A DNA stretch of 64,000 nucleotides from a virus. The notes beneath the pieces were generated by a model. The model saw only the letters and a program-made list of their open reading frames with translations, did no database searches and was not told the origin of the DNA. Positions 4,836-60,299 of this stretch are shown piece after piece; position 1 is the stretch's first letter; each line of letters opens with the position of its first letter. The translations under genes and the position numbers were made by a program. The stretch covers positions 64,001-128,000 of IMG/VR virus record IMGVR_UViG_3300037484_000374; one strand, given 5' to 3'.

Positions 4836-6579
4836 TAACCTAACACCCACATTCTTAGAAACAGATTACAACACTTTAAAAGCAAAACTGACCCAGTTGA
4901 TGAAGAAATCTGATACTTTTAAAGATTATAATTACGAAGGAAGTAATATTTCAATGTTGATCGAATTGGTTTCGTATCTCGGTGATCTCAACACATTTTT
5001 CACAAATCTTCTTGCCAAGAATATGTATGAAGATACAGCGGATGTTTATGAAACAGTCCACAGACTCGTAAGACAAAAGGGCTATAACCCACTTGGATAT
5101 AAGTCATCACAGGTAACTATCACGGCGGCACTTTCAGGTGTTCAGGTTGGTGATGTTTTACAAGTACCGGCATGGACATCCATAGATACCGGACTAACCA
5201 CAGATAATGGGGATTCAATATATTACACCATCACACAAGATCATGATTTTACAGCTGACACTGCCCCGCTATATGAGTTTGATTTAATAGCAAGAGAGGG
5301 TGAGGTTAGTGAACTTGAGTATAAAGGAAGTGATCTGGTTGATAATATAATAATTCTACCATTTTCTACTTTTGACCATGGCTCATATCCTTTTGATATA
5401 CGAGCAATTCAATTAACCGTTAACGGTACAGCATGGACAAGAATATCTGATTTTTATGAAGACGTTACTGGTCTTATTGATCAAGATAATGTATTCATTT
5501 TTAACTATGATAAATATGAGAGATATGTTATTGAGTTCTCATCCTCAAGAAATGTTCCAGAAACCACAGATGATATCAACATTACAATGCTCAAATCAAA
5601 TGGTGTTGATGGTTCTATAGGTGCTGGAACAATCACAGAAGCAGATGATAACTTTGTTGTGAATGTTACAAGAGGGGTGATTTTATCTACAATGGGTAAG
5701 GATGATCTTGATTCATTCACAAATACAGAGGCATCTTTCGGGGCTGCAAATCCTGAAACAGTCGAGCAAATGAAAAGTAACTCAAAGGCGGTTGTTCATT
5801 CACAGCTGAGAAATGTTACTACTAAGGATTATATAAGTCATTTAAACGGTAGAGGTGATGTTGTTGCGAGTAACGCATGGGGAGAACAGGAAGAGAACGC
5901 TGGAAATACCCTAGAATATAATAAAGTATATATTAGCCTTATACCACCTCGTAGCGATGCAACATATTTCATTAACGGAACATTAGATATGGTTGCTACA
6001 ACGTGGGAGTATTCTCAAGACCATACGATAACAGGAACGATATACCTTCCATCACCATCTGGATATAATACAGATTTTAAAGAAGATGTTTTACAGTATC
6101 TTGAACCACGTAAGCACATAAACGTTTATGAAACCTTTGTAATTCCAAATCTTGTGTATTTTAGATTTGAAATAGGTTTAAGAATAAAACGTATCTACAA
6201 TTTCAATGATGTGAGACAGGCAGTTCTCGACAAATTAACATATTATTTTGATCCAATGTTCAGATCATTTGGTGAAAAAGTAAATTTCCTTGACATACAT
6301 GACTTCATTCTTAATGAGGATATCACATCGGACGATTATGACTTCGCAAATATTAGGGGTATTCAGAACTTGGTATTCAGGGATGTTGTTACATACACAG
6401 ACAGTTTATCCGGGGCCGACAAAGAAGAAATTTTTGAACCTTCAAGTTCTCAGTATCCACAGTTTGTAAATTCAGCGTATTCTGGATATGTTGATAACGT
6501 TATGCGACCAGTAAAACTTGATAGAAAACAATTTCCGGTTATAGCCGATAATCATTGTACCTTTATAAGCGAAGGATAA
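4828..6579 (+). CDS. gp6: Baseplate wedge subunit gp6
   Basis: DYNTLK..L...FKDYNYEGSNISMLIELVSY N-terminus and RNVTTKDY motif. Confidence 0.9.
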   Translation: MSNNLTPTFLETDYNTLKAKLTQLMKKSDTFKDYNYEGSNISMLIELVSYLGDLNTFFTNLLAKNMYEDTADVYETVHRLVRQKGYNPLGYKSSQVTITAALSGVQVGDVLQVPAWTSIDTGLTTDNGDSIYYTITQDHDFTADTAPLYEFDLIAREGEVSELEYKGSDLVDNIIILPFSTFDHGSYPFDIRAIQLTVNGTAWTRISDFYEDVTGLIDQDNVFIFNYDKYERYVIEFSSSRNVPETTDDINITMLKSNGVDGSIGAGTITEADDNFVVNVTRGVILSTMGKDDLDSFTNTEASFGAANPETVEQMKSNSKAVVHSQLRNVTTKDYISHLNGRGDVVASNAWGEQEENAGNTLEYNKVYISLIPPRSDATYFINGTLDMVATTWEYSQDHTITGTIYLPSPSGYNTDFKEDVLQYLEPRKHINVYETFVIPNLVYFRFEIGLRIKRIYNFNDVRQAVLDKLTYYFDPMFRSFGEKVNFLDIHDFILNEDITSDDYDFANIRGIQNLVFRDVVTYTDSLSGADKEEIFEPSSSQYPQFVNSAYSGYVDNVMRPVKLDRKQFPVIADNHCTFISEG

Positions 6580-43001: not shown

Positions 43002-43077
43002 GGGGTGGTGGTTCAGTAGTAGAGCACAAGGTTGAAGTCCTTGGATAGCGGGGCGCGATTCTCCTCACCCCTGACCA
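43002..43077 (+). tRNA. tRNA-Phe(GAA), degenerate T-loop and acceptor
   Basis: CAAGG-TTGAAGT-CCTTG; T-loop CGCGATT; CCA end. Confidence 0.65.
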
Positions 43078-43091
43078 AAAATTGAATATAT

Positions 43092-43174
43092 AGATTGTAC
43101 CGCCATGGGGCAAACTGCTTTTGAACGGCATGGGTGGGTGAAACCACGGGGTTCGATTCCTCTACTTTCTGCCA
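43092..43174 (+). tRNA. tRNA-Ser(TGA), atypical 8/4-like fold
   Basis: TGCT-TTTGAAC-GGCA, long variable arm GTGG...CCAC, G73, CCA. Confidence 0.7.
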
Positions 43175-48605: not shown

Positions 48606-48615
48606 TATAAAATAT

Positions 48616-48705
48616 GGAGAGTGCAAATAAGGCTGGATTGGTCTGGCGGTTGGCTGTAAACCAACCCCTGATAGACATGGGGTTCGAATCCTTCACTCCC
48701 CACCA
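48616..48705 (+). tRNA. tRNA-Tyr(GTA), atypical 8/4-like fold with expanded D region
   Basis: GTTGG-CTGTAAA-CCAAC, long variable region, A73 CCA. Confidence 0.8.
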
Positions 48706-49502: not shown

Positions 49503-49624
49503 TTAAGGTTTACGGTATGATAAAAATATGTTTGAAATGTGATCAAAAAAAGGATATATCTGAATTTCATAAAAATTGCCATGCTGAATATCATCATTTG
49601 AAAAGATGTAAAAATTGAAAATAA

Positions 49625-49704
49625 GCGGGTATGATAAGCCAAGGGCATTGGTAAACTGGACACCAGCCAGTAAATAAGGGGTTCGACTCCCCCTTCCCGC
49701 TCCA
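49625..49704 (+). tRNA. Atypical Gly-like tRNA (possible ACC anticodon); identical to 17266-17345
   Basis: Same sequence as the 17.3-kb copy. Confidence 0.6.
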
Positions 49705-49880: not shown

Positions 49881-50451
49881 TTAAATAAAGGATGTTAATA
49901 TGGATGAATTTGTTAAAGTATTTTGTAGGGTTGTAAAGATGCATTGGTACACTTGGAAAGCAAAATATATTCTGGATTCTATTTTGGATGTATGTCGATG
50001 GATAATTTATATTGGTTTCCTTCCAAAGACATTAATTAACTGGACTGTTGGTTGTCATTTGGCAAACTCCAAAAGATTAAGGAAGGTTATTATAGAATCT
50101 GATTTTACAGACATCATAAAATTTGTAGATCGGGCTGATAGAGCCTATAGAAACCTTTACATCGAAGATTAAAGGAACAAAATGAGTAAGCTAAAAATTG
50201 TTTTGAGGATAGTAAGATTGTACAGATGTACTTTTATAGGAAAGTATTACATACCGTTTTTAAATAAAATCATGGATTGTTTTGTGTTTCTTGGAATTAT
50301 CCACTACGGATTTCACAACCATATTGTTGATAAGATAAAGGAAAACACACAAAGAATAATTGAGATCGCCATAGAAGGTGGTAACCATGACCTTGCTGAT
50401 ATCGCTGATGATCAGAATAAAACAGCAGACGATTTATATATTTAAATGTGA

Positions 50452-50524
50452 CGCAAAGTAGACCGGTGTCTGGTGAAGTCTCATAAGCTCTCACGCTGGG
50501 GTTCAATTCCCCACTTTGCATCCA
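50452..50524 (+). tRNA. tRNA-Met(CAT), initiator-like C1:A72 mismatch
   Basis: Loop CTCATAA; T-arm TGGGG-TTCAATT-CCCCA; CCA. Confidence 0.75.
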
Positions 50525-50680: not shown

Positions 50681-51790
50681 ATGGATGCATATTGGATAAA
50701 CCCACAAGGAAAAATATTACAATTGACAGGGGGGACACATATAAAGATAGTTTTTGATAATCCAAATAAGTTTGGATTATCAAAACAATCAATTCAAAAA
50801 ATATATGATAAATATAACGAAAATTATGGAATAGAAGGAAAGGCGAGAGATGAAATTATCACAAAGATCATCCAACGAGGCTATGTTCGTATCAGAGAAT
50901 ACAAGAACAGGTGGAGCGTTCAGGTATGGAAGATCAATAATAAAGTAAATGATACATTATGGGTATGGGCAAAGACCGTATTACCCAAAGCAAGTGATAA
51001 ATTTGCTGATATAGACATCACAGAAATTGGTGGAAGGAAAGGTTTAATGAGAACATCTTTATCAAAATTGGCAAGTGGTGGAAGTATTTCAGAAGAAGAA
51101 AAAGAATTGGCAGAACGGCATGTTCGTTTTGTAGACTCGATTGATGATTTTGATGATTATGTTCCAGAGACAGAAGAAGAAATATCAGAAAAATATATAG
51201 TCAATGAATCATCATTGTCAAGGCTATGGAAACACAATACAGAACACGATTGTGGGGCTTTAACGGCATGGCGTAGAGCAGAGGGTTGTGGTGAGGGTAG
51301 ATTATATACACATAAGGAAAACCAACAACGTAATAAATCACTCAGAGCAAAATTAATGGCCATGGGCTATTCTGTAACTGTGATATCTGGAAAATACCCA
51401 GAGGGTGGTAAAACATCCAAGGAAGATAGTTATTTTGTCGTTGACATGGATGACGATGGACAGCTTGAAAAGGATTTACTGAAACTCGGAGAAATCTTTG
51501 AGCAGGATTCCATATTGTTTGTTCCAAAGGGTGCTGTTGAAAGAAAACAGAAAGCACTTTTAATAGGAACAAATCATTGTCCTAATGGATTCCCTGGGTA
51601 TGGTAAAAAACTTGAATTTGAAAAGGGCAAATTTGGTGTTAATAGCCCTATATATACATCATATGTTAATGGCCGACCATTTATATTTGAAACTCTTGAG
51701 ATGACAACACTCCACAGGCAAGGTAATGGTATGGGGGTCTGGGCAACATATCTCATAGCAAAAAAAGGTTGGCAAGACATAGACGTATAA
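50681..51790 (+). CDS. Late two-domain hypothetical protein
   Basis: Late promoter 50653; C-terminal domain ESSLSRLW...ENQQRNKSL...FEQDSILF; terminator at about 51807-51856. Confidence 0.75.
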   Translation: MDAYWINPQGKILQLTGGTHIKIVFDNPNKFGLSKQSIQKIYDKYNENYGIEGKARDEIITKIIQRGYVRIREYKNRWSVQVWKINNKVNDTLWVWAKTVLPKASDKFADIDITEIGGRKGLMRTSLSKLASGGSISEEEKELAERHVRFVDSIDDFDDYVPETEEEISEKYIVNESSLSRLWKHNTEHDCGALTAWRRAEGCGEGRLYTHKENQQRNKSLRAKLMAMGYSVTVISGKYPEGGKTSKEDSYFVVDMDDDGQLEKDLLKLGEIFEQDSILFVPKGAVERKQKALLIGTNHCPNGFPGYGKKLEFEKGKFGVNSPIYTSYVNGRPFIFETLEMTTLHRQGNGMGVWATYLIAKKGWQDIDV

Positions 51791-51904
51791 AAATAAGAAC
51801 ACTTTGAAAACCCCTCTTTTTCTTTGATATCAAGGAATTGGGGTTTTTCTTTTTTGTCGTTATTTTAAATTTTTTATATAAATACTATTAAGGGAGTAAC
51901 GAAA

Positions 51905-52186
51905 ATGGAGATTTATGAAAAATATCTTCTTGAAACCTTACCGGATGGCTGGACAAAAGACAGCGTTCAAAAGTTTGCCAAGACGATAGCGGCAAGCACT
52001 GACAAGGAAGGTTTCTTCAAGAAGTGAGTGGAGAGAATGTCACAGCATTTGGATGATGCTGAAATGGTTAACGGTCTTTGTGCCAGTATGCTTGATAAAG
52101 CTAAAGGCAGTACATATTGGAGAGGTTCACATAAGACAGCGGCGCAGGCAAAGAAGGATGTAGCGGCACACCAAAATGTAAAATGA
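51905..52186 (+). CDS. Late 93-aa protein with one in-frame TGA (codon 41, 52025-52027): selenoprotein candidate or pseudogene
   Basis: Late promoter 51877 and SD AGGGAG; the frame continues 52 codons past the TGA; hairpin at 52043-52061. Confidence 0.65.
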
Positions 52187-52207
52187 TGCAATTAATGCAG
52201 AGGAAAT

Positions 52208-52417
52208 ATGATACAGGCAAAAATAATCAAGACAGAGACTGAGTACGACCATGCGCTGCTCCGCATTGATGAGTTAATGAATGCGACCCCAGACACGCCG
52301 GAAGGTGATGAGCTTGAGTTGCTTATTACCCTGATTGAGCTTTATGAGGCGAAAGAGTATGCCATTGACCTGCCGGATGCGGTCAGTGCTATAAAATTCC
52401 GTATGGAGCAACAGTAA
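52208..52417 (+). CDS. HigA-type antitoxin N-terminal domain only (no HTH)
   Basis: IIKTETEYDHALLRIDELMNATPDTPEGDELELL..LIELYE...AIKFRMEQQ, then stop; locally higher GC. Confidence 0.8.
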   Translation: MIQAKIIKTETEYDHALLRIDELMNATPDTPEGDELELLITLIELYEAKEYAIDLPDAVSAIKFRMEQQ

Positions 52418-52615
52418 AACAAAATTTTTTCATCAAAATATAAGAAAGAATTAAGCAAAATAGAACGAATAGTATTATTGAAAAATGGTGTGATGATCAT
52501 GGTATGAAATATAGCAATACAAAATATCACATCAGAATGGGAAACAATTATAGATGATATACTATAAAAAAACAGTAAAATATAAATTGTAAAATATGTA
52601 TAAAAAGGATGATAA

Positions 52616-53164
52616 ATGGTAAATGGTAAAGCAAAAGGAAGTGGATATGAGAGACAAATATGTAAACATCTCAGTATTTGGATACAAGGTACCGAAAAAC
52701 CATATCTTTTTTGGAGACAACCGGCAAGTGGTGGATTGTCAACTATAGACGGACGTAATAGTGAAAACTTATCAGGAGATATAAGGTCTATTAATACAAC
52801 TTCGGAATGGTTTTGTGGAATATATAGTGTTGAGATAAAGACCGGTTATCCTGATGCATCACTTGATAAGTTTTTAAAATATAATAAGTCTGACCCCCTT
52901 AGAGCGTTCTGGGTTCAGTGCATAGATGATGCAAATCTTTCCGAGAAAAGACCATTGCTCATCTATAAGAAGAAAGGGATGCCTACCCCTTGGGTTGGTA
53001 TTGATGAAAATGTAAAGAAGATTCTGGCCAAAGAATTAAAAGGTTTGAGGTTTGTGATGTTACATTGGGCAGAAGATTTACCGGACACATATCTTTATGA
53101 GTATAAGGAATTCTTTGATACGATAACACCCGAATTAATGAAGAAAAGGTTTAATATAAAATGA
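52616..53164 (+). CDS. Holliday-junction resolvase-like PD-(D/E)xK nuclease
   Basis: GKAKGSGYERQIC, SGG, GDI, VEIK. Confidence 0.75.
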   Translation: MVNGKAKGSGYERQICKHLSIWIQGTEKPYLFWRQPASGGLSTIDGRNSENLSGDIRSINTTSEWFCGIYSVEIKTGYPDASLDKFLKYNKSDPLRAFWVQCIDDANLSEKRPLLIYKKKGMPTPWVGIDENVKKILAKELKGLRFVMLHWAEDLPDTYLYEYKEFFDTITPELMKKRFNIK

Positions 53165-57434: not shown

Positions 57435-60299
57435 ATGTATTTAAAAGTAACATACGCACAACAATTTGATGATTTGATCATGCATCTGAAATCAAAGTAT
57501 CCGAGAAGATTATTTGACATGGAGGGTATAGGTAAACAAACAGATATGTCCTTGTTTTCAAAGGATTTTTTCACAACGAAAACAGTAACATCTGATGTAT
57601 CTGTTGATGACAACAGTAACGTTGATGATATGTCGGTTATAACATATACCAAGGAACTACCAAAACCTTTCTTCAAGCTGAACAGCTACTATGTTCTATG
57701 GAAGAAAATGAAACAACTATATGGTAAAGCAAGAGCAAATGAAATTGTCGAGAAACAATTGACAGGTGATATTTATATCAATGATTTTACAGGTGTAGGT
57801 GCTGGAATACCGTATTGTATGAATTACAGCACGTATGATGTGGCCCTGTTGGGATTGCCGATGATCAAAAAAATTATCAGTAGTCCACCAAAATATTTAT
57901 ATTCTTTCAAATCACAGCTGGAACAGTTCGTTGTGATTGCGGCGAACAGCACACTTGGGGCCACCGGCCTTGCAGATATGTTGATTGTCATGGCTTATTA
58001 TGTTGATAAGATTTTTAGAACTGGAAAAGATGCAAGTTTTGCATTTGCCTCAGAAGAGGATGCTTGGTTATATATAAAGGAAACCATTGTGTCTTTTATA
58101 TATACAGTGAACCAACCAAACCGTGGTAATCAGTGCGTAACAGAGGATACAGAAGTTTTAACACCTGTTGGATTTAAAACATATGATATGTTATCAGAAG
58201 GCGATAGCATCTATACATGGGATAACGGCAAACTCAATATTCAAAAGGTTGATAGAGTTAATGTATATGATTATGATGGTGAAATGCACTGCTATACCGG
58301 AAGGGATTTTTGCCAGTGCGTAACACCAAACCATAGAATACTACACAAGAAGAATAATAATAGGGATGAGTATTTATTATCAGAGTCATGTAATCTAATA
58401 GATAAAAAAACTCCATTAACAGTGCCAGTGGCAATGATAGAGGATGACAGAGAAGATTATAATATATCTGATGATATGTTAAAACTTTGTGTTATGATTT
58501 TAACAGATGGGAATATCGATACAGAAAAAAATGGTAGGATTAAATTATATAAGTCACCCAAAAGGTATGGTAACAAATTAATAAAAGAAACTTTGGAATC
58601 ATTGGGGGTGGATTATAGTCTTATAGAAAGACCATCTGTTTTTGATGGAACAGTAAACCATTATGATATAACAACAGATAACTCACAAGAAATTTTAAAT
58701 ATATTAAATAGTACAAAAAAAGAACTACCCGATTGGTTTTTTAATCTTAGCAAAAGACAAGCAAATATAGCTATTGATTTATGGTCTAAATTTGATGGTT
58801 ATAACGGTGATAATAGACAAAAGTTACAGTGTGATAATTATAAAATTGCGGATCAACTACAACATGTTTGTTTTCTTGCTGGGAGAGGAAGCAGAATAAC
58901 AAGCAGACTAATTGGCAACAATAAAAAAGAAACAATATATCTCATTCCTTATAATAGAATTAATAAGGATGCATGTAAAAAAGAAAAAATTCACTATAAA
59001 GGAAAAGTGTGGTGTCCATCAACAAAAGACGGGGTTGTTGTTTTTAGAAAAAATGGAAAGGTTTTTATATCTGGAAACTCACCATTCACCAATATTTCAA
59101 TATTTGATGATAATTTCCTTAATGAATTAGCACCAGATTATCGATTCGTTGAGGGTGATGAAGTCATAACTCCAAAGGTATCGACAATCAAAAAGCTACA
59201 AGAAATGTTTCTTCATTCGATGAACCATGAACTAAGACGAACACCTATAACATTCCCAATAACAACGGCGTGTTTTAGTGTTGATGAGGATCATAATATT
59301 CAGGATGAGAACTTTTTAGATTTGATCAGCAAAGAAAATATAGAATTCGGATTTATTAATATGTATGCTGGAAAAACATCAACGTTATCAAGCTGTTGCA
59401 GACTTCGCAGTGATAAATCAAACGAATACTTTAACTCTTTTGGGTCTGGTTCAACCAAGATAGGAAGCCTTGGAGTGTGTACAATTAACTTACCGAGAAT
59501 AGCCTTTGAAAATAAAGGAAACTCAGAGGCTTTTATTGATAAGCTGATTGAACTTGCTGTTGATTGTCAGCATGTAAATAATGCAAAAAGAAGCATTATT
59601 AAAAAGCGTATTGAGTCCGGTAACCTTCCACTGTATGATCATGGGTTTATGGATATAAACAAACAATATTCCACCATCGGTGTTAATGGCTTCTATGAGG
59701 CCGTAACTGAAATGGGATATGATATAATGTCAAATGAAGGACAGGAATTTGCCATAATGATTTTAGAAACCCTGAACACTGTAAATGATAGACTACAGAA
59801 ACAATACGAAGCACCTCATAATGTCGAGCAGGTTCCTGGGGAAAGCCTCAGTGTTAAGTTGGCCTCTAAAGATAAGCTGTTTAGGATTCAGGACAAATAT
59901 GATTTTTACTCTAACCAATTTATCCCCCTTATATGTAAAGCTGATTTGTTAGACAGAATAACATTGCAGGGATTATTTGATAGCCATTTCAGCGGCGGGG
60001 CCATTGCTCATTTAAATGTAGAGCAGAGAATTGAGGACTATAATATTGTAAAGAAATTGATTCGTAGTGCTGTGAAGAAAGGTGTTATCTATTTCGCCGT
60101 GAATTACACGTTACAGCGATGTGCAAAGAGTCACATGAGTGTCGGTAGGGGTGATAAGTGCTACTGTGGTGCTGATATAATAGAGACATATCAACGAGTT
60201 GTTGGTTTTCTCACAGCGACACGCACATGGAATAAGACCAGAAGAGAGCTTGACGAGCCAAATAGGGTGTTTTATAAAAACAGTGATATAAAATTTTAA
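57435..60299 (+). CDS. nrdD: Anaerobic ribonucleoside-triphosphate reductase, intein-containing
   Basis: PYC, SSCCRL finger loop, GSLGVCTINLPR, VPGES, C-terminal RVVGF glycyl-radical motif. Confidence 0.95.
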   Translation: MYLKVTYAQQFDDLIMHLKSKYPRRLFDMEGIGKQTDMSLFSKDFFTTKTVTSDVSVDDNSNVDDMSVITYTKELPKPFFKLNSYYVLWKKMKQLYGKARANEIVEKQLTGDIYINDFTGVGAGIPYCMNYSTYDVALLGLPMIKKIISSPPKYLYSFKSQLEQFVVIAANSTLGATGLADMLIVMAYYVDKIFRTGKDASFAFASEEDAWLYIKETIVSFIYTVNQPNRGNQCVTEDTEVLTPVGFKTYDMLSEGDSIYTWDNGKLNIQKVDRVNVYDYDGEMHCYTGRDFCQCVTPNHRILHKKNNNRDEYLLSESCNLIDKKTPLTVPVAMIEDDREDYNISDDMLKLCVMILTDGNIDTEKNGRIKLYKSPKRYGNKLIKETLESLGVDYSLIERPSVFDGTVNHYDITTDNSQEILNILNSTKKELPDWFFNLSKRQANIAIDLWSKFDGYNGDNRQKLQCDNYKIADQLQHVCFLAGRGSRITSRLIGNNKKETIYLIPYNRINKDACKKEKIHYKGKVWCPSTKDGVVVFRKNGKVFISGNSPFTNISIFDDNFLNELAPDYRFVEGDEVITPKVSTIKKLQEMFLHSMNHELRRTPITFPITTACFSVDEDHNIQDENFLDLISKENIEFGFINMYAGKTSTLSSCCRLRSDKSNEYFNSFGSGSTKIGSLGVCTINLPRIAFENKGNSEAFIDKLIELAVDCQHVNNAKRSIIKKRIESGNLPLYDHGFMDINKQYSTIGVNGFYEAVTEMGYDIMSNEGQEFAIMILETLNTVNDRLQKQYEAPHNVEQVPGESLSVKLASKDKLFRIQDKYDFYSNQFIPLICKADLLDRITLQGLFDSHFSGGAIAHLNVEQRIEDYNIVKKLIRSAVKKGVIYFAVNYTLQRCAKSHMSVGRGDKCYCGADIIETYQRVVGFLTATRTWNKTRRELDEPNRVFYKNSDIKF
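58134..59078 (+). mobile_element. Intein (315 aa) with LAGLIDADG-type endonuclease in NrdD
   Basis: Q|CVTEDTEVLT, block B VTPNHRIL, MILTDG and KFDG helices, VWCPST...ISGN|S. Confidence 0.93.

Follow-up and report, generated by a model that had tools for sequence, protein, structure and literature searches.

A T4-like phage gene with an in-frame UGA codon and a downstream SECIS-like hairpin is a probable selenoprotein gene

Bacterial selenoprotein genes such as fdhF, selD and grdA/B carry an in-frame UGA codon that is aligned with cysteine in homologous proteins. They also carry a stem-loop just downstream of this codon, inside the open reading frame, as modelled by bSECISearch. The phage gene described here resembles the bacterial genes in these features. 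Its hairpin and those of two related lineages have a loop of 5-6 nt with G-G at loop positions 2-3, a spacing of 22-23 nt and a folding energy of -7.5 kcal/mol or lower, and so satisfy every constraint of the bacterial SECIS consensus quoted in PMC13188914. It differs from them in its location, a lytic-type T4-like phage genome without sel genes of its own. The predicted protein also differs from the catalogued selenoprotein folds (thioredoxin-like and other): it is a small domain that consists of helices only and has a U-x17-C or U-x14-C pair. The mechanism proposed below is the known bacterial one; as far as we have found, the phage-borne gene and its protein family are new. A full-text literature search for phage selenoproteins returned only papers on eukaryotic viruses, and phages are not mentioned in the 2026 prokaryotic selenoproteome review, in BSepDB or in the GOS selenoproteome paper.

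Virus-borne genes that rely on the Sec machinery of the host are described for the GPx-type selenoproteins of molluscum contagiosum and fowlpox viruses. These selenoproteins of eukaryotic viruses are captured homologues of host glutathione peroxidases and have eukaryotic-type SECIS elements; that of fowlpox virus also lies within the coding region (PMC1802603). The gene described here would share the dependence on the host. Unlike these viral genes, however, it belongs to a phage-specific family and its candidate SECIS is of the bacterial type.

Two phage systems are also close to this locus. The internal proteins IPI, IPII and IPIII of T4 carry a capsid-targeting sequence, with Y4 and F7 in the leader of T4. 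In IPIII the capsid-targeting sequence corresponds to the first 10 residues; residues 4 and 7 of this sequence matter for targeting, residues 8 and 10 for processing, and gp21 cleaves after L/I-X-E (PMC9026906). Our gene likewise encodes a small protein of a T4-like phage with a 10-residue leader that is aromatic at positions 4 and 7 and has L-x-E at 8-10, has the motif TATAAATA upstream and resides in a genome with a gp21-type protease. However, it shows no sequence similarity to the T4 internal proteins past the leader, and its packaging is predicted from the leader. The second system is the two-cysteine helical module found in phage head-morphogenesis/protease fusions; one member of the family (P0092) is fused to Peptidase_S77. 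The family differs from these module proteins in its other fusions, which involve cupin/DUF5661 domains, and in the lack of a Pfam family.

The window analysed here is the whole stretch of 64,000 nucleotides corresponding to bases 64001-128000 of a 170,951-bp IMG/VR virus record. This record is estimated to be 71% complete and has a GC content of 35%. It includes T4-like phage genes for gp5, gp6, a gp46-like nuclease, NrdD, NAD ligase and a Peptidase_S77 prohead protease, among which those for gp5, gp6 and the gp46-like nuclease are inside the window. The anaerobic ribonucleotide reductase frame (window 57435-60299) is 954 residues long. The Pfam match to NrdD is in two stretches, mostly between residues 549 and 940, and leaves a long N-terminal part outside.

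The recoded gene occupies positions 51905-52186 of the window and comprises 93 codons. It lies on the plus strand, as do all the elements listed with it in this paragraph. It starts at ATG 51905, reaches an in-frame UGA at codon 41 (52025-52027), the proposed Sec codon, and then stays open for 52 more codons to an ordinary TGA stop (52184-52186). A putative T4-type late-promoter motif, TATAAATA, is found 28 nt 5' of the ATG (51877-51884), and a Shine-Dalgarno sequence AAGGGAG can be read directly 8 nt 5' of it (51890-51896). The first ten codons (51905-51934) specify the leader MEIYEKYLLE. The SECIS-like hairpin CAGCAUU-UGGAU-GAUGCUG (52043-52061) follows the UGA and precedes the TGT codon of Cys59 (52079-52081), the partner of residue 41. 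The adjoining gene is an N-terminal HigA-like fragment of bacterial origin (52208-52417). A sequence-only reading of this stretch had placed the start codon, the UGA at codon 41, the end of the open frame and the hairpin at the same positions, and all of these were recovered.

The gene upstream of the TGA gene encodes a protein with an S-AdoMet-lyase-like domain (phrog_30877; window 50681-51790) and has its own TATAAATA 28 nt 5' of its ATG. A simple terminator scan of 51600-52700, which includes the gap to this upstream gene, called none. The S-AdoMet-lyase-like gene is also located upstream of the TGA gene in the related phage locus L070 (1083-1724), so that local synteny is partly conserved. 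An endonuclease VII gene lies downstream of the TGA gene in L070, and the TGA gene of another locus, L089, adjoins a gp32 gene.

Homologues of the read-through product form a large phage family without annotation. With this product as the query, an exhaustive HMMER search retrieved 171 of them at E <= 0.001; the family consensus is GWTKxS..KF.K..G...KGFFxKCVxxM....GFCAxxKD...G.T.WRG. The motif FFxKCV...FCAS, cited in the sequence-only reading with cysteine at the UGA position and a second cysteine as its partner, is present in the family alignments. Columns 41 and 59 are C/C in 142 of the 151 aligned domain copies. The exceptions include three I/T copies, in which both cysteines are gone together, and one W/C copy. 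When the family HMM is compared with the two halves of the gene, the piece before the TGA matches profile positions 4-43 and the piece after it positions 45-92, so that exactly the cysteine position falls on the TGA. One protein family spans UGA-41.

No Pfam family covers the domain and its sole match in PHROGs, to phrog_6439 (function unknown), is weak. A tblastn search against cultured phages gave no match, and the family HMM found no further copy of the domain elsewhere in the phage record. Fold searches in the PDB and BFVD did not give any significant match; the best non-significant ones in BFVD are capsid morphogenesis and maturation-protease proteins. A protein-atlas search with the natural homologue P0014 returned only viral hypothetical-protein clusters. 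The AlphaFold model (pLDDT 82.7) shows five helices. Residue 41 belongs to the helix spanning 37-46 and residue 59 to the one that follows it (52-67), an arrangement in which the two residues may be in contact.

The TGA is not unique to this genome: it also occurs in four other assemblies of this phage and in three diverged lineages. The halves of the split gene (P0004 and P0002) are found on three JGI contigs and one Logan contig. Contig DNA from the JGI samples 3300037692, 3300037515 and 3300044698 carries the same TGA and is identical to the window across the gene, save for one G-to-A change in the hairpin. The contig of Logan run SRR12682491, represented by its gene products only, shows the same split into 40 and 49 amino acids.

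Among the diverged lineages, L005 has a TGA at the same codon in a protein about 51% identical to that of the window. The same holds for the codon in L067/L070, where the other 23 of the 25 metagenome loci have cysteine (TGT). The third diverged lineage is L089 (810-1079). Its database product P0061 shows a 'W' at this position because the gene caller used TGA=W, while the other genes of the contig are ordinary under code 11. The four TGA lineages (window, L005, L067/L070 and L089) are only about 50% identical. A DNA-pattern search of viral contigs for similar loci gave only L060, an out-of-frame chance match. In the domain tree (163 leaves), all TGA forms fall within one subclade of 27 leaves (support 0.94), where they are interspersed with Cys forms; L005, for instance, is the sister of the Cys form P0020 (support 0.93). 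Cysteine thus alternates with UGA at codon 41, as the homologues had been expected to show, and UGA persists in four lineages.

Counted from the UGA, the hairpin begins at a distance of 15 nt and its loop at 22 nt; the stem is 7 bp long if the closing U.G pair is counted. The bacterial consensus of PMC13188914 was coded as a set of rules and applied to the 75 nt after codon 41. It is passed by the window hairpin (stem 7 bp, loop UGGAU, spacing 22 nt, -8.4 kcal/mol), by its L006 variant (7 bp, UGGAU, 22 nt, -8.0 kcal/mol), by that of L067/L070 (6 bp, UGGAU, 22 nt, -7.5 kcal/mol) and by that of L089 (7 bp, AGGUAA, 23 nt, -8.1 kcal/mol). The homologous hairpin of L005 (5 bp, AUGGAUG, 21 nt, -3.8 kcal/mol) fails the strict loop and energy rules. 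The three passing lineages all have G-G at loop positions 2-3. Three of the four TGA lineages therefore pass versus one of 46 distinct Cys forms (Fisher p = 0.0008), a comparison that amounts to only about two independent structural observations because common ancestry links three of the four hairpins. In L063 (P0020), the Cys form nearest to the TGA forms, a hairpin of this kind is absent.

The changes seen between related hairpins preserve pairing. The closing U.G pair becomes U-A in L006 and C-G in L067, and a U-A pair becomes U.G in L067. The stem of L089 (AACACCU/AGGUGUU) is unrelated in sequence to those of the other TGA forms. Between the window and L005, the conserved residues of codons 42-52 are identical at 6/6 synonymous sites, versus 18/28 elsewhere. 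An ungapped RNAalifold analysis of six TGA forms recovered the hairpin in five, L089 being 1 nt out of register. Stability alone was dropped as evidence: the folding energy is unremarkable when compared with shuffled sequences (z = 0.2 for 71 nt and -0.6 for 51 nt) and, once the positional and loop rules are removed, hairpins of the same stability turn up downstream in 4 of 30 Cys forms. It is the comparison across the family that stands above chance: there the hairpin goes together with the UGA, and equivalents of the SECIS-like element noticed in this one gene are present in the other TGA lineages.

The genetic code of the phage is otherwise ordinary. TGA terminates 34 of the 164 long plus-strand ORFs of the genome, in agreement with the earlier statement that global recoding is not implied. 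A coding-potential screen of every in-frame TGA on both strands left four candidates: the gene described here, one ordinary gene junction and two that are unlike single genes. Candidates at genome positions 4889-5143 and 13199-12837 were rejected, as they look like ordinary adjacent or non-coding frames. Only the UGA-41 locus has coding sequence on both sides of the TGA in this record. With TGA ending many genes and a single coding in-frame TGA, a genome-wide reassignment is ruled out.

The phage record, at 71% completeness, contains no tRNA-Sec, UCA-anticodon tRNA, SelA, SelB or SelD. The idea that the phage brings its own tRNA-Sec or a suppressor tRNA was rejected, the extra tRNA-like genes having Phe, Ser, Tyr and Met-type anticodons. 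These tRNA-like genes, uncalled by ARAGORN, are located at window positions 43002-43072, 43084-43172, 48612-48705, 50450-50522 and 49622-49703. They include a Phe(GAA) tRNA (Rfam 35 bits), a class II Ser(UGA)-like tRNA, a Tyr(GUA) tRNA and a CAU-anticodon tRNA, together with one odd element whose anticodon loop is ACACCAG. None of them has a UCA anticodon.

For a UGA codon in the place of a conserved cysteine, with a hairpin conforming to the bacterial SECIS downstream of it, the most likely explanation is a phage-encoded selenoprotein. To this reading of the small late gene, with selenocysteine inserted at UGA-41, we assign a probability of roughly 0.7 from comparison of sequences. The gene would give rise to one 93-residue protein. 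UGA-41 would be read as selenocysteine by the SelB/Sec-tRNA(Sec) machinery of the host, recruited by the hairpin 22 nt downstream acting as a bacterial-type SECIS inside the coding sequence. Sec41 would replace the first cysteine of the conserved Cys41...Cys59 pair, whose two residues are predicted to occupy adjacent helices in a small phage domain that consists of helices only. The Sec41/Cys59 pair is probably a selenenylsulfide/disulfide-type or metal-binding site, and a redox role of the protein appears plausible.

Both the identity of the inserted residue as selenocysteine and the possession of the necessary machinery by the host are inferred. A lead to this host comes from the adjoining gene. 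The TGA gene and its downstream neighbour are located in a GC-richer patch (42-47% versus 35% for the genome). The neighbour (52208-52417) consists of the first 69 codons of a HigA-type gene and is preceded by remnants of the 3' end of higB (region 52183-52417). A marine-biofilm MAG labelled 'Proteobacteria bacterium' matches the fragment with 87% identity at the protein level and roughly 85% at the DNA level; for a Desulfocapsaceae MAG the amino-acid identity is 74%. The HigA-type gene of the closest MAG (L090) is full length, with 396 residues. The fragment looks like captured host DNA. The three MAGs closest to it all carry SelA, SelB, SelD (with an in-frame TGA) and a 74-bit tRNA-Sec. A host of the Desulfobacterota type with Sec machinery is a lead only, drawn from one mobile antitoxin-gene fragment.

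Each of these three MAGs also carries a second Sec-like tRNA. That of G001 (L131, C104:8150-8420) has a UCA anticodon and discriminator U, and adjoins a SelB-like gene. That of G002 (L133, C1:46700-46900) is 94 nt long with a GCA anticodon, and that of G003 (L134, C19:13700-13900) has a UCA anticodon and adjoins a second SelB-like gene. These tRNAs resemble the tRNA(ReC)/SelC* system, which reads a UGA with a SECIS as cysteine (PMC13582414, citing Vargas-Rodriguez 2018). The phage gene might therefore undergo the same SECIS-dependent recoding but with insertion of cysteine via tRNA(ReC)/SelC* and a SelB paralogue, giving an ordinary Cys41...Cys59 product. The second tRNAs of the candidate host-lineage MAGs, two of them beside a SelB-like gene, are in keeping with this, and PMC13582414 gives a precedent for UGA plus a downstream SECIS yielding cysteine in some Desulfobacterota. 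The same paper warns that bioinformatics cannot separate the Sec and Cys outcomes. However, the link between the phage and the tRNA(ReC)-bearing MAGs is weak, and canonical tRNA-Sec, selA and selD are present in the same MAG genomes. Nor is there an obvious reason to keep UGA over UGY in four lineages. We regard insertion of cysteine as unlikely.

The gene could also be a split one, in which translation would stop at UGA-41 and restart by coupling at ATG-45, producing associating peptides of 40 and 49 residues without the first cysteine. All TGA forms possess ATG-45, which in the window comes after GGAGAGA, and gene callers annotate the halves separately (P0004, P0002 and P0097). However, Met45 is the ancestral residue of the family and hence no new start, and among the TGA forms only the window has a ribosome-binding site before this codon, L005, L070 and L089 having none. 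Moreover, codons 42-44 are under amino-acid constraint. The nearly invariant Val42 of the family is found in every TGA form (GTG, GTG, GTA and GTA), the difference being synonymous and GTA being unable to act as a start codon; residue 44 is R or K in all of them. Cys59 is also present in every TGA form, whereas family members that lack Cys41 lack Cys59 as well. Finally, a split gene leaves the position-specific hairpin unexplained. We consider this explanation quite improbable.

Substitutions downstream of the UGA point in the same direction. There, about 6 of the differences between L067 and L070 are synonymous and 3 are conservative. The dN/dS ratio for the window and L005 is about 0.3-0.5, with a value of about 0.5 in the C-terminal half that indicates only moderate constraint. 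The ribosome therefore appears to read through UGA-41.

UGA is the leakiest bacterial stop codon. Read-through might accordingly be leaky or programmed, carried out by a near-cognate tRNA (Trp, Cys or Arg) and stimulated by the hairpin, with short and full-length products in a fixed proportion and no selenium involved. Downstream structure can stimulate read-through, and the phage record is devoid of sel genes. However, the stop falls exactly on a nearly invariant, paired cysteine in four lineages, which is the signature of Sec/Cys exchange and not of a C-terminal extension, and both the spacing of the hairpin and its G-G loop match the SelB-type consensus. Such read-through seems very improbable. 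A pseudogene or a sequencing or assembly artefact, that is, a functionless TGY-to-TGA nonsense change, is effectively refuted: TGT and TGC are one substitution away from TGA and the GC-richer patch around the gene may be a recent acquisition, but the TGA is identical in independent assemblies and shared by four lineages only about 50% identical. All four are free of frameshifts and further stops, and they keep the invariant residues of the family downstream of the TGA.

The phage-encoded selenoprotein is thus the reading retained, and its upstream region and leader suggest when and where it might act. The motif TATAAATA occurs 19 times in the window versus 11.0 +/- 2.9 expected. Six plus-strand copies are located 27-42 nt 5' of ORF starts, including that of the TGA gene. 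The repeated spacing between TATAAATA and ATG in a T4-like genome fits the late promoter that the sequence-only reading had proposed, and late transcription of the TGA gene is probably driven by the copy of TATAAATA in front of it.

In the leader MEIYEKYLLE, residues 4 and 7 are aromatic and residues 8-10 form an L-x-E motif (L8-x-E10). The leader resembles a T4 capsid-targeting sequence with its cleavage motif, and a KYLxE leader is common to family members. A gp21-type protease is present in the phage record (Peptidase_S77 match of 53 bits). The leader suggests that the protein would be loaded into the prohead and trimmed by this protease, as are the T4 internal proteins. Leader and protease lend indirect support to the virion packaging that the sequence-only reading had put forward as a possibility. 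Taken together, the L-x-E leader, the KYLxE motif of the family, the Peptidase_S77 fusion and the non-significant BFVD matches suggest, as the most likely function, a protein of the head interior that may be injected and would carry a Sec-Cys centre. The Peptidase_S77 domain of the phage itself (L135/L136, G000:C1:162006-163523, minus strand) is located in an open frame of 566 residues, in two matched stretches; this frame is much longer than a plain protease.

In its broadest form, the hypothesis is that of a first family of bacteriophage selenoproteins in T4-like phages of anoxic-sediment bacteria: head-packaged effectors co-injected with the DNA, dependent on a Sec41-Cys59 redox or metal centre, and with the UGA and SECIS serving as a host-sensing switch. 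As a whole this proposal is tentative and rather doubtful. If it is true, the Sec41-Cys59 centre would act in the newly infected cell, and the full-length product would depend on the decoding system and the selenium status of the host. The outcome would vary with the host: Sec, Cys via tRNA(ReC), or, where the host does not have the trait, a truncated peptide of 40 residues. The UGA codon would therefore be both a host-sensing switch and a host-range marker.

The locus would also carry a warning for annotation, since phage gene callers split such genes or silently use code 4, as for P0061. The natural UGA with its 19-nt hairpin is a compact cassette for testing SECIS rules. If the selenoprotein reading is true, the known selenoprotein families would gain a new one, unusual in its all-helical U...C motif, and there would be a sequence marker tying uncultured T4-like phages to Sec-competent hosts. 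Sec decoding is regarded as a cellular trait; a phage gene that depends on host SelB and tRNA-Sec would mean that bacterial viruses exploit the 21st amino acid.
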